From a plasmid: 43,567 nucleotides of DNA. Position numbers: made by a program. The stretch lies in sequence record CP030468.1; one strand, given 5' to 3'. Below are positions 12,101 through 18,100 of the stretch, one piece after another (within the stretch, counting starts at the first letter, position 1; the number at the start of each line of letters is the position of its first letter).

Positions 12101-15100
12101 GTTTATACCTATATATCTTTATGATACTAATTTAAAAGATGAATTATATTATCAAGACTTAGGATTCTTTGATACTACTAAAAAAGGGAATCATGGAGAA
12201 CCACTTTTAGTATATAAACCTAAAAATCTAGAAACTAATAAAAAAGAAAAGCCTATTAAATCTTTATTCAAGAAAGTATTCAATATCAATTAGCCTACAG
12301 TATTAAAGAGGTGGGGTAACTCATTTCTTTAATACTTATTTTATTAACAGGGGTTTAATATATGGATTACACAAATCAAAAAAGAAAATACATAATATTT
12401 GGTATTGTTCTTGCTATAACACTTCTAATTGTTGGAATTGCTTACTATTTAATCAGTTTGAATAATGCTAAAGGACAAGTTAAAGAATTTGAAAAATTAG
12501 TACAGCATAATGACTACAATAGTATTGCTAAAAAGTTATCTAATAAAGAAGAAACTTTATCTGAAAATGATGCTAAAAACTTTGTGTTATTTGTTAAAAG
12601 TAAAGAAAATCAAGAACAATACAATGAGCAAATACAAAAAATTAAAAGTAATATTGATAAAAATAAAGACAATAATACCGTGTATGGCTCTATAACAGAT
12701 CAATACGGAAATAACCTAATAACTATTAAGAAAAACGGAAAGACTTTCTTTTTTATAGATAAATTAGAATTCAAACCTAAACTTACCAGCGTTTATGTGA
12801 AAGAATTTAATAACACTGGAATTTACAAATATCAGCAAGAAAATGCTAAAAAGGTAATAGCAGAAAGCAATCAAACAACAGAATTAGGCAAGTTCTTTAT
12901 TGGTAAATATAGTATTAAAACAGATAAAACAATTGAAGATTCAATTCACAATGGGACTTTGACAGGAAAAATAGATATAGATTTAAGCAATAGAGGAAAC
13001 AATAATAAGATATATGCAGATGAAGATTTTAACCAAAGCTGGTTTAAGGTTAAGCTAAACAATGATAGTTTATTAGAAAAAAATAGTTACAAACTTTTAA
13101 TTGATGATAAAGATGTTGATTATAATTCCAAAAAGACATATGGAAAGTATTACAATCCAACTGAATTAAGTGTATATGCGATTGGAAAATTAGAGGGTAA
13201 AGAGTTTAAAACTAACAGAATAAATATAAGACGTAATTATGATAATAAACCTCAAAATTTAAAATTAAGTTTTAAGGAATCTCAAATAAGAGATTATGAG
13301 AGTAAAAGTAAAAAGGTTAAAGAAAAAGCTAAAAGCTATATTAAAGAATATACGAAAGAGTTAAACAAAGCATATAAAAAGAAAGATTATAAATATATAT
13401 CTGACTACGTTAAAAATAACTCTCAATTAGAAAAACAACTAAAAAAACAGGTTAAGTCTAAATCAAAAGTTAAATTTAAAGATGTTAAGATAAACAACGT
13501 TAAACGTGATAAAAACAAAATATATATTGAGTTAAGTAAAACCAACAATGGTAATGTGTTTCAAACGAAATATACCTTAGATTACGATAATGTATCAAAT
13601 GAATTTCTAGTAGAAGATTCACATGATAATTAAAATAATTCAAACACCAATGACATTAAATTCATTGGTGTTTTTTACTGTACGCTAACAATACTACTTA
13701 AAGGTATTTTTAGTTTATTGTTTGAATTGGAATTAGTGATAATCATAAATCCATTAAATTCATCTATTTTGTTAATGTAACATTGAATCGAATATATATA
13801 TCCGTCTTTCCAGTAATCTAAATCAGTTAATATATTTTTACTAATCTTACTACTTACTTTCTCATTAATTTCTTGTAGCTGGTCATCAGACAATAGAGGC
13901 ATATTTATTTTATTTTGATCTTCTATGTGTTGTTCCAATATTTCATATTGCTGGGGTATCGTCTTAAATGCGTTCCATTTAACTATTCCTCTACCTTTTG
14001 GAATATGTGGATTTAAGTATTCCCTAGGTATGTTTCTATAATCAGTTTCATATTTGTACGGTTCGGGCATATTAGGATTTATTATTTTCATATCAGTAAA
14101 CACCTCAACCAAATTATAGAACATATGTTCGTAAAAATAAAGAGTGAAATAAGAGTATTATAAACGATTGTATTTATTACACTGATAATTACTTTTCTTA
14201 ATAGCGTTATAATGGGTTGACTGGTGTATTAAAATCTTGTATTATAATCATAGTAAGATAATTAACAAATAACATGGCAAATAATACAAATAGATTAGCT
14301 CTCATTTGCATTGAGAATTAATTTTATAGATAACTATACATTAAAAACAATATACAACGCTATTTTAGAAAGGATAATTACAATTATGGCCAATATTGGT
14401 TATGCTCGTGTATCTACCAGAGATCAAAGTTTAGATTTACAAATAGACGCTTTGAGTAATTTTGGTTGTGAGAAAATATTTAGCGAAAAAGTTAGTGGGC
14501 GTAAAGTAAATAGAACTGAACTAGATAAATGTTTAGATTATTTACGTGAAGGCGACACTTTAGTTATTTACAAGCTAGATAGATTAGGCAGGACTACTAA
14601 GCAACTGATAGATTTAGCCCAATGGTTAGAAAATAATAATATTGAATTACAAATTATTGATATGAATATCAATACAAAAGACCCAATGGGAAAGATGTTT
14701 TTTACAATGATGAGTGCTTTTGCTGAATTAGAGGCTAACTTATTAAGCGAAAGAACTAAAAAAGGTTTAGAATCAGCTAGAGCAAGAGGTAACATGGGAG
14801 GCAGAAAAGCAATGCCACAAGAAAAAAAAGAATACATTAAACATTTATACGATACCAAAGAATATACAGGACAAGAAATTGCTAAAAAAACGAATGTAAG
14901 TAGAGATACTGTATATCGCATTTTACGAGAGTTTAAAAAGTAATCCTAAACATTGCATAACATGACAGGTATTGATATAATATAAGTAAGAAAAGAATCG
15001 GCGTTGTGGCGCAGATATAAAAATTAATACTACACGAACTAGAATCGGCGTTGTGGCGCAGATATAAAAATTAATACTGCACGAACTAGAATCGGCGTTG

Positions 15101-18100
15101 TGGCGCAGATATAAAAATTAATACTGCACGGAAAGAAACAACTATAGAGATCAAAACACATTATATTGTTTTAAGGAGGCGTATATTACGCCTCTTTTTT
15201 ATTAAATTTATGGAGTGAATAACAATGGAAGTTGTTCGTTTAAATCAAAACCTATTTAATAAACTACGAGGAAACGAAATATCAAGCAATAAAAATGGTT
15301 CAAGACCATATTATTATTCTTTCAAACGTAATAATAATAGAGTTTGTATACCTTTTAGAACAAATGCACAAAAGGTACCTAATAAATATAAAATTAATTT
15401 AGGAGGCGAACAGCCCGATAAACCTAATTCAGCTATTGATTTAACAAAGTCTATAGTAATTAGTAATGATGAATATCTTAATAACAGGTCAAAAGCTAAA
15501 ATACCACAAAATGTTAATAATTTTTTAAAGCAACAAGCACCAGCTATTGAACAAAAATACGATACTATGTCTAATGATTACATAAAAGCAAAAGCTAGTT
15601 TAAGTAAGATACCTTTAGTTAAATATTCAACTATGCAATACTTCCACAAAGAATTGAATATTCAAGATAGTATTGATAATCAACAAACTAAAAATGCTAT
15701 TAATGAATTAATATCTAATGGGAAATCAAATAAATATAATAAATTACAATCTTCTCTGCCTAATGAAAAATTAAATTTGCTAGATGATTATGAAACTCTA
15801 TATGAGTTTAAAAGCCTAACAGACTACCCAGCTAAAATAAATTCTAATGATATTGATAATCCTTTCTTAGAAGTTGAGAAAAATAACAAACATTTTACTT
15901 TGTCTGCACTAACTATTAAAAATGAACCAGAAAAGCATGTAAAAGACTTTTTAAATTATGATATAGAGAATGAAAAGAATAAAGATATTGATTTAGATTT
16001 ATAAGGCCTGTAAAAAAGGCCTTTTTTCTTTTTATTTATTATGACACGACATGAAATGACACGTCACAAATGGTATAATTACTATATGGAGGTTATATTT
16101 ACATTAGGTTTTTATTAAAAAAAGGAGTGATTTAATAATGAGATTTACACCCCGAGGAATTTTGAACAACACCGATTATGAACTAAATTCTGAATTTTAT
16201 TATGTGCCAGCAAGTGATAAACAAATGAATGATCAAAGAGATATGACTAATAAAAGCATAGTAGGTAATTTAGTCTATAGAAATAATTTCTATAACGAAG
16301 TGTATACTCAACCAGTTTATGATTTAGACGATTCTAACGAAAAATATCAAACACCACATATTATAAGTATAGATGATTCTGAATTTGATTATAACTTAAC
16401 TAATTTAGATGATTATTTTACTAAAGATACAGCAAATAAAGGTTATGAAAAGCTAGTAAATGCCATTAAATCAGAAGAAATTACCTATTTTGACAGTGAT
16501 ATTAATGAAGTTGATGATTTTACACAACAAGATGAATATTCAAATGATTGGTATACTAACACTTTTGTGGATTTAGTATTAAGTATGAAAGGATATTCAT
16601 ATCATGTAGAACCAAATAGAGAATCTGTTATTGAGGATTCACATATCATAACAGAAAATGATATTACTTATAATGTAAGCTATAACCCCGAAAAACATCA
16701 TTTATATATTAATGACTTCCCAGCAATTCCAATAGAAGAAAACGATAATATAAGATTATTAAATGATAACTTAACTCAAGACATGGAAAAAACTTACGAT
16801 AATATAAACTATAATTTTTCATACAATGATTTTAAAACACTTGAAGATGATTCTTATATTTATATTGATTTAACAGATTATAAAGATAACGAAGGTAAAT
16901 TTGTTAAAAATCTAATAGAAGATATACCACCTAATGAAATTATTAAAGATAGATTAAAACAAAATATTAATTTATTTGACGAACGAGCAAATTATAATGC
17001 CTTAGCTGTTTATAGAAGGGATTTAGAAGATTTTTCAGATAGAAATAATTTAGATAGCTTAGATAAAGTTAAAGATTTAAAAACATTCTATGATACGGAA
17101 ATTAATATTAAAGGATTGAACATTAACAACGATATTGAGAAAAAGGCTTTAAATAATCAATTAGCCTTTAACCTTTATAATGAACCGTTAAATAACATGT
17201 TTAGAGATAACAATGTTTTATATGAAGTTTATGAAAAAGAAATTTATGATGAAAAAATTCCCCTTTCTATAGAAGATAGAAAAGAAGTGAAAACTTATTT
17301 AGATGACGCTAGAAACAATTTTTCAAATAATTTCTATGAATATACAACGAACAAATCATCTATTTTAGCTGAAAATAGTTTAACTGTTTTAGATAAAGCT
17401 AAATATGATTTAGAATTTGCCCCTGTATCTAATCATTTATACAAAGAAAGAGAAAATTTTTACGAAGGAATGAAACAAGCTACCCTGCCCTTACACAATA
17501 TTACTAAAGAACAATATAAAGAAAGAGAAAATGATATTGAAATAATCGGTCATTTTAAAAACTATATCAATACTGAATTACATGGAACAAAGAGTTCTGA
17601 ATTCAAACCTAATTTCGTAAATGATTCTTTAGAAAATGAAACTAACTCAATAGCTTTTGAAGATATTATAAATGGATCAGAAGAAACACATAGTAATATT
17701 ATTAATTCTATTAAAAATGAATTAAAGCAAGAAAGAGATAATTTAGAAATGTAGGAGGTACAATATGCTAAAAACATATACTGAAATCATTGGAAGTGAA
17801 TTGCCAATTTATATAACAAAATCAGAAACAAGCGAATTACTATTTTCAGAAGAATTAGATAAAAATTTAAAATATGAAGTTGCTGGATATTATCTATATA
17901 ATGCTAAAAAAGACTTATACAAAGAACTTTATAAACCTATTAGCGAGGTGTAGTATATGGCTTATTCAAAAGGAAATTATAAAAAGAAAAAAATAGATTC
18001 AATAATAGAAGAATTGAATAATAAGCTAGATGACTTCAAAAACAATGACAAAACCTATAAGGAATTTTTAGATACTACAGCGAAATTTCACAACTATTCA

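Follow-up and report, generated by a model that had tools for sequence, protein, structure and literature searches.

A stretch of 43,567 nucleotides (nt) of plasmid DNA from sequence record CP030468.1 (the window, to which all coordinates below refer unless another locus is named) carries at positions 14953..16004 a locus that we identify, with a probability of roughly 0.85, as the tenpIN type III toxin-antitoxin (TA) module of the pSK41/pGO1 plasmid backbone. An earlier note on this DNA had read the locus as a type III TA system made up of a promoter, RNA-antitoxin repeats, an attenuating terminator and an endoribonuclease of the ToxN superfamily. This reading is upheld by the profile homology of the toxin, by the conserved arrangement of related loci and by a literature that already names the locus. 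The tenpIN locus of pSK41/pGO1-type plasmids is in fact known: its promoter was characterised in 2009, and the module entered the catalogue of type III systems in 2012, with a review following in 2016 and new modelling in 2025.

In a plasmid search, the 1.2 kb surrounding the locus were 100% identical to pGO1 (NC_012547), pLW1043 (NC_005054), the Mu50 plasmid VRSAp (NC_002774) and pUSA03 (NC_007792). The same region was matched in 167 plasmid records; most of these plasmids are conjugative, and Staphylococcus and Mammaliicoccus are the only genera represented. That search returned four places per record, which reflect off-register self-matches of the repeat array and no additional copies of the locus. 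The protein of 259 amino acids (aa) encoded at the locus is 100% identical to its counterpart in pSK41 (NC_005024) and is labelled in RefSeq only as a hypothetical protein. In dividing type III TA systems into three families, Blower et al. (2012; PMC3401426) placed the S. aureus Mu50 plasmid pVRSA under tenpIN in their Table 1 and named pGO1 and pSK41 as bearing the tenpIN system of pVRSA; the window, being 100% identical at the locus to plasmids named there, belongs to tenpIN by naming. The family ranges in their Table 2 are repeats of 39-57 nt, 1.9-3.0 copies and toxins of up to 259 aa, the last figure indicating that the pSK41-type locus sets the upper limits of the family. Schuster and Bertram (2016; PMC4885055) later reviewed the TenpN of VRSAp, pSK41 and pGO1 as a protein of 259 residues accompanied by three predicted repeats, and stressed that the system was untested. 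The 259-residue S. aureus TenpN has recently been modelled with “a structured C-terminal extension”, and pseudoknots with an A-rich stretch were proposed for S. aureus tenpI (Nadig et al., 2025; PMC12283969).

The elements of the locus lie on the + strand in the order found in tenpIN systems, with repeats at 14994..15130, a terminator at 15173..15200 and the ATG of the toxin gene at 15225. Tandem Repeats Finder (TRF) returns a single array with a period of 47, 2.9 copies, 98% matches and a score of 267, the highest among the 67 TRF rows of the window, and both unit length and copy number fall inside the family ranges given above. Repeat 1 (14994..15040) and repeat 2 (15041..15087), each of 47 nt, differ solely at unit position 39, which is A in the former (15032) and G in the latter (15079). 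Repeat 3 (15088..15130) equals repeat 2 up to position 43, diverges thereafter, and is whole through the proposed pseudoknot (unit positions 4-41). The 47-bp unit, the 2.9 copies and the single A/G difference had all been described correctly in the earlier note, which had the third copy diverging after about 40 nt instead of 43. The 17-nt repeat core TCGGCGTTGTGGCGCAG occurs three times, compared with 0.01 occurrences expected by chance, and the G+C-rich core of the unit reaches 67% G+C in a plasmid of 29% G+C. The repeats contain no open reading frame (ORF) of at least 20 aa on the + strand, and a 40-aa ORF running over them on the minus strand (15039..15161) was judged spurious. Separate arrays had been assigned to Rep and to the centromere, and TRF indeed finds these at 25220..25306 (period 23) and 22648..22727 (period 10).

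Between antitoxin and toxin lies an intrinsic terminator (15173..15200, + strand) with the stem GAGGCGTA/TACGCCTC at 15176..15194, a TAT loop and a run of six T at 15195..15200; the stem stands where it had been placed before, the T-run being one residue shorter than the seven first counted. The terminator scan draws it as an 11-pair stem at 15173..15197 and finds two terminators in 2 kb, with 0.5 expected. As previously described, a GGAG ribosome-binding site (15212..15215, +) precedes by 9 nt the ATG of the 259-aa tenpN ORF (15225..16004, +). A further terminator, AAGGCCT..AGGCCTT plus a T-run, follows tenpN at 16003..16033 (+). Rfam, searched at a permissive threshold, gave only sub-threshold chance matches, the best being DapZ at 15137..15204 (33 bits, compared with a gathering score of 56), which spans the terminator hairpin and its T-run. 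The segment from repeat 3 to the terminator (15135..15172) forms a second hairpin in the minimum-energy fold of the transcript (AAACAAC...GUUGUUUU); this segment together with the terminator gave the DapZ match, and conservation of the hairpin in relatives looked partial.

The N-terminal domain of the toxin (residues 1-145; 15225..15659, +) has the ToxN/AbiQ/CptN endoribonuclease fold, and its nuclease activity is predicted. The NCBIfam model TenpIN (NF047358) matches residues 6-144 over profile positions 1-141 of 141, with an E value of 2.4e-17 and 63.5 bits. A word-indexed protein search recovered close staphylococcal relatives only, and canonical TenpNs came into reach only with an exhaustive profile search. 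Over 1.84 billion representatives, the latter gave 100 relatives, mostly of 140-200 aa and covering only residues 1 to about 155 of the query. All 57 TenpN-sized homologues aligned from this search match the TenpIN model (best E 6.7e-51). A profile of the homologue family matches the solved structures of ToxN (4ATO, E 1.9e-4) and CptN (4RMO, E 3.1e-4), with the R-P-Y and P-x-[RT]-S motifs in alignment. A direct single-sequence search of the PDB with the 259-aa protein gave nothing useful, and PHROGs returned one function-unassigned family over the N-domain.

Residues kept in the TenpN clade of the locus include R27-P28-Y29, P43-x-R45-T46, D72, K75, Y119, S135 and Y139-F140-H141-x-E143-L144. 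The conserved TenpN residues listed by Nadig et al. (2025), in E. faecium numbering, are R36, Y38, P53, R55, H60, G75, D77, K80 and the C-terminal leucines. When the two sets are matched by motif order, R27, Y29, P43, R45, D72, K75 and L144 are kept, and the histidine and glycine correspond to K50 and A70. Judged by sequence, the 259-aa toxin is a divergent TenpN subclade with clear homology and not a new family.

The promoter of the module, Porf259 (14953..14981, +), consists on reading of the sequence of a -35 element TTGCAT (14953..14958), a 17-nt spacer and a -10 element TATAAT (14976..14981). The perfect -10 is preceded by TG and so forms an extended -10, TGATATAAT, at 14973..14981. The -35 matches TTGACA at three of six positions, which explains the absence of Porf259 from a consensus promoter scan. 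The coordinates and the -10 of the promoter proposed earlier are sound, and the term near-consensus does not hold for its -35. The transcript start of Porf259 was mapped in S. aureus carrying pSK41, and activity was shown with chloramphenicol acetyltransferase (CAT) fusions (Ni et al., 2009; PMC2777438); in the window the tenpIN transcript is expected to start near 14988.

Within the spacer lies an operator of the transfer regulator ArtA, ACATGACAGGT (14960..14970, +), one base off the consensus ACATGACATG and identical to the Porf259 oligonucleotide used by Ni et al. (2009). These authors measured a Kd of 790 nM for ArtA on this sequence, placed its DNase I footprint immediately after the -35, and found Porf259 repressed by 51%, about 2-fold, in CAT fusions. 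The coupling to transfer regulation that the promoter spacer had hinted at was thus already demonstrated in 2009. The motif ACATGACA, found in the spacer at 14960..14967, has nine occurrences in the window, all on the + strand, compared with 1.5 expected, a six-fold enrichment. Other sites lie at 20..32, 22553..22565, 31912..31924, 27264..27271 and 31868..31875; three are overlapping doubles, ACATGACATGACA, a form that Ni et al. (2009) described for ArtA operators at Ppar, PtraA and PtraL. At the next promoter downstream, ACACGACATGAAATGACACGT (16044..16064) is exactly the atypical dimer-of-dimers ArtA operator of Porf538 (Ni et al., 2009), and is located upstream of a 538-aa ORF (16138..17754).

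The antitoxin unit is inferred, from comparison of sequences, to fold as an H-type pseudoknot. RNAalifold, run on 27 distinct aligned units, gives a hairpin in which positions 4-6 and 8-11 pair with 16-19 and 21-23, and thereby predicts stem 1 of the pseudoknot model independently. In this model, stem 1, interrupted by a G7/A20 mismatch, joins 4-6 and 8-10 with 17-19 and 21-23, and stem 2 joins 12-16 with 37-41; standard pairs are formed in all 297 cells of the 27 units. Pair 4:23 is A-U in 20 units, G-C in five and U-A in two, pair 14:39 occurs as U-G, U-A or C-G, and pair 15:38 as G-U, A-U or G-C. The A/G difference that sets the first two copies of the window apart falls at position 39 and toggles stem 2 between U-A and U-G. 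The covariation score of the model on these units, from which stem 2 was also derived, is 0.152 compared with 0.093 in shuffles, none of 500 shuffles reaching 0.152, and sliding the partners by one column lowers pairing to 10-19%. The minimum-free-energy hairpin (18-21:37-40 plus 23-25:34-36) was rejected, as nine of the 27 units break it and its covariation shows no excess.

The conserved A-rich stretch (24-36) forms loop 3 of the pseudoknot model, where it may be well placed for minor-groove contacts with stem 1, and this placement would agree with the qualitative proposal of Nadig et al. (2025). Single-stranded tails like those of ToxI would come from the variable linker of 10 nt (42-47 together with 1-4 of the following unit), where cleavage probably takes place; modelled in this way, the linker appears at least as good a candidate for cleavage as the A-rich stretch, which the earlier note had likened to the cleavage sites of ToxN-family enzymes.

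Related loci, collected from plasmids and assemblies, encode toxins 43-90% identical to that of the window. Those with upstream DNA show the same succession of a 45-48-nt unit, a terminator of different sequence and the toxin gene, the exceptions being a repeat-less locus (L002) and one with only 83 nt upstream (L015). Whole arrays hold two to four copies, as in L008 (1324..1413, two of 45 nt), L005 (1304..1439, three of 46 nt) and L137 (~1224..1411, four of 47 nt), and in L010 one 48-nt unit (1337..1384) has an extra A in the A-rich loop. Changes in length fall in loop 3 or the linker, never in the stems. Loci with toxins only 43-76% identical likewise have two to four copies, and among them the 37-nt repeat core (UCGGCGUUGUGGCGCAG...CUGCA) is 79-97% identical, and identity outside it is 50-65% in flanking non-coding DNA, 50-64% in the 10-nt linker and 66-68% in the coding sequence of the toxin N-domain. 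A scan of genome contigs returned a single locus, and metagenomes scanned for the degenerate core of the repeat, TCGGCGTTGNNGCGCNGA, gave, among the matches listed, single matches per contig and never a tandem array. Six short-read or metagenome contigs (L006, L009, L011, L016, L138 and L140) start inside or just after the array, which suggests that assemblies tend to break at tenpI and that the array is under-reported in draft genomes.

The remaining part of the toxin, residues 146-259 (15660..16004 with the stop codon, +), is a compact helix/sheet domain of 114 residues that a profile search finds only in staphylococcal and Macrococcus relatives, and for which no known or detectable structural relative was found. 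Two relatives of 159 and 163 aa (P0012 and P0019; 54-61% identical), encoded at 84..563 of L015 and 164..655 of L016, lack this domain. The DNA upstream of the 163-aa toxin shows the same repeat, with stem 2 changed to GCGG:CCGC, and a terminator, and in the 83 nt upstream of the 159-aa toxin a terminator alone is visible. Because these relatives lack it, the basic module can do without the C-terminal domain. Identities of the N- and C-domains are discordant in several homologues (91% and 29% in P0011, 77% and 93% in P0004, 66% and 84% in P0008), which indicates that the two halves of TenpN recombine independently, with a breakpoint near the domain boundary. Overall, the C-terminal domain evolves faster than the N-domain. 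A speculative and rather unlikely extension is that this domain serves as a sensor or adaptor setting the release of TenpN, so that, together with ArtA control, TA or abortive-infection activity is wired to the state of conjugation, the repeat-less chromosomal copies being a domesticated form. If true, such a module might, for example, protect or police newly formed transconjugants.

In the mechanism proposed for the module, the activity of Porf259, its transcript start and its control by ArtA are experimental (Ni et al., 2009), and the remainder is drawn from homology, fold, architecture and covariation. Porf259 fires in S. aureus, ArtA lowers its output about 2-fold through ACATGACAGGT just downstream of the -35, and the transcript would begin about 6 nt before the three 47-nt tenpI units. 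Most transcripts would end at the terminator at 15173..15200, leaving antitoxin RNA in excess over toxin, and a minority would read through to allow translation of TenpN. The N-terminal ToxN-fold domain of TenpN would act as a sequence-specific endoribonuclease that cuts the repeat precursor into 47-nt units, and would be kept inactive by these units in a closed RNA-protein assembly. If ToxIN and TenpIN of P. luminescens are a guide, the labile RNA would decay once transcription stopped or RNA was degraded, as on plasmid loss or phage takeover. Free TenpN would then cut cellular or phage RNA, with post-segregational killing and/or abortive infection as the outcome. For TenpIN of P. luminescens, work in E. 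coli has demonstrated toxicity, its neutralisation by the full repeat array and abortive infection of coliphages (Blower et al., 2012).

Several results weigh against the tenpIN identification or against parts of it. The TenpIN match of 63.5 bits lies below the curated equivalog cut-off of 90 bits, Pfam, searched up to an E value of 1 and including ToxN (PF13958), gave no ToxN match to the 259-aa protein, and PADLOC gave no match to it. ToxN (4ATO) is reached through the family profile alone. Four positions conserved in 84-95% of distant TenpN (alignment A3) are changed in the window (H to K50, G to A70, E to V97 and Y to M115); their replacement in the clade accounts for the sub-threshold score, and the K50 position is variable within the clade. 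On the RNA side, nested folding of a single unit gives -7.0 kcal/mol with a z score of -0.25, no better than shuffled sequences, and the pseudoknot relies on few independent covariation events among closely related sequences, the same sequences having served both to derive stem 2 and to test it. Toxicity, neutralisation, RNA processing and phenotype are ascribed to the staphylococcal locus by analogy, and no later experimental work on staphylococcal tenpIN was found in the literature searched. Finally, a chromosomal tenpN of Staphylococcus cornubiensis NW1 (L002, 1..1510; NZ_FXUZ01000015.1), 89% identical and of full length, keeps the motifs and the upstream terminator and lacks both tenpI repeats and a promoter over 1.5 kb. 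This intact gene makes it debatable whether the protein is toxic in every case; it may be an orphan or domesticated toxin, and P0002 of S. delphini (90% identical) may be a similar case. On reading of the sequence, the neighbours of the S. cornubiensis gene are a secreted serine-protease-like gene directly upstream and a transposase-like fragment further up.

Such observations invite the explanation that the locus is a decayed or domesticated tenpIN, in which the RNA leader only attenuates and the protein is a non-toxic RNA-binding or RNA-processing factor for plasmid biology, for instance conjugation-linked RNA turnover, with the C-domain giving the new function. The score under the family cut-off, the four changed positions and the orphan chromosomal copy would all fit, as would the clade-specific C-terminal domain and a promoter sharing the ArtA regulon with transfer genes (Ni et al., 2009). 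We nevertheless regard domestication as improbable. The residues aligning with the RPY and PLTS motifs of ToxN, together with D72 and K75, are conserved across the clade; the constraint on the repeat core is much stronger than simple attenuation would call for, and the array keeps to two to four copies. The 159-163-aa relatives, of canonical TenpN length, do without the C-domain, and the 163-aa toxin is preceded by the same repeat and a terminator.

Another explanation, which we consider very unlikely, is that the repeats act as DNA, as iteron-like or accessory sites for the resolvase, ArtA or another plasmid protein, orf259 being an unrelated backbone gene. A serine recombinase gene is indeed the direct upstream neighbour, both in the window and in most of the related loci, and the G+C-rich core could be a protein-binding site. 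However, the array stands between the mapped transcript start and the terminator, on the same strand as the gene, and it travels with the toxin gene and not with the resolvase, other ORFs separating the resolvase gene from the array in L008 and L137. A 33% identical TenpN of 162 aa on an unrelated 163-kb metagenomic contig (L012) has its own, different repeat of 51 nt in 1.9 copies with a terminator (2857..2953), and no resolvase was found among the called genes within about 3 kb on either side. The two copies of that repeat differ by a compensatory change in a hairpin (CCUGU..ACAGG and GGUGU..ACACC), and in the 27 aligned tenpI units, too, variation preserves base pairs (AU/GC/UA; UG/UA/CG). 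ArtA, for its part, has no effect on Pres (Ni et al., 2009), and its site lies in the promoter spacer, not in the repeats.

The proposal that the toxin founds a type III family distinct from ToxN, CptN and TenpN, to which the earlier note had inclined on account of some 90 extra residues and which could appeal to the missing Pfam, PADLOC and direct PDB sequence matches and to a length of 259 aa compared with a family mean of about 164 aa (Blower et al., 2012), deserves hardly any credence and is already refuted at the level of sequence and fold by the full-length TenpIN profile match, by homologues grading continuously into canonical 140-200-aa TenpN, by the range extending to 259 aa that the family-defining authors themselves gave (Blower et al., 2012), and by the separable nature of the extra length, a C-terminal add-on to a TenpN core which the 159-163-aa relatives lack.

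Around the module, a YolD-like gene at 13675..14124 (- strand; Pfam E 1.6e-20) is divergent from the resolvase gene, and a YolD-like neighbour is also present in pGO1 (L001) and in L003, L014 and L139. An ORF of 520-542 aa comes after tenpN in most related loci, and the 538-aa product of the window has no family match.

Compared with the founder of the family, TenpIN of Photorhabdus luminescens TT01, the staphylococcal module has a toxin of the same family by profile, the same order of promoter, tandem repeats, Rho-independent terminator and toxin gene, and a repeat length and copy number inside the family range. The toxin has 259 aa, in contrast to 143 aa in P. luminescens, because it carries the C-terminal domain, and it belongs to a divergent subclade in which the H, G, E and Y positions are replaced and the score remains under the cut-off. 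The staphylococcal locus resides on a Gram-positive conjugative plasmid, with its promoter under the transfer regulator ArtA, and is known by sequence plus promoter data, whereas function of the P. luminescens system was shown in E. coli. ToxIN (Pectobacterium atrosepticum, B. thuringiensis pAW63 and E. coli) and AbiQ (Lactococcus) are more distant, with 13-17% identity, no match of the staphylococcal toxin to Pfam PF13958, and repeats of 34-36 nt instead of 47 nt. To CptIN of Eubacterium rectale there is a profile-level sequence link only (E 3e-4), and CptIN is chromosomal whereas staphylococcal tenpIN is plasmid-borne.

As the locus has been catalogued since 2012, the remaining gap is experimental and not one of discovery. 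The present analysis adds a pseudoknot model that can be tested by mutation, the finding that conservation is far higher in the RNA core than in the toxin, and evidence that the C-terminal domain evolves as a separate module. Plasmids of the pSK41/pGO1/pLW1043 type move resistance to aminoglycosides, mupirocin and, in pLW1043, vancomycin between staphylococci, and a type III TA module on their conserved backbone could stabilise these plasmids or shield their hosts from phage, thus aiding their persistence.

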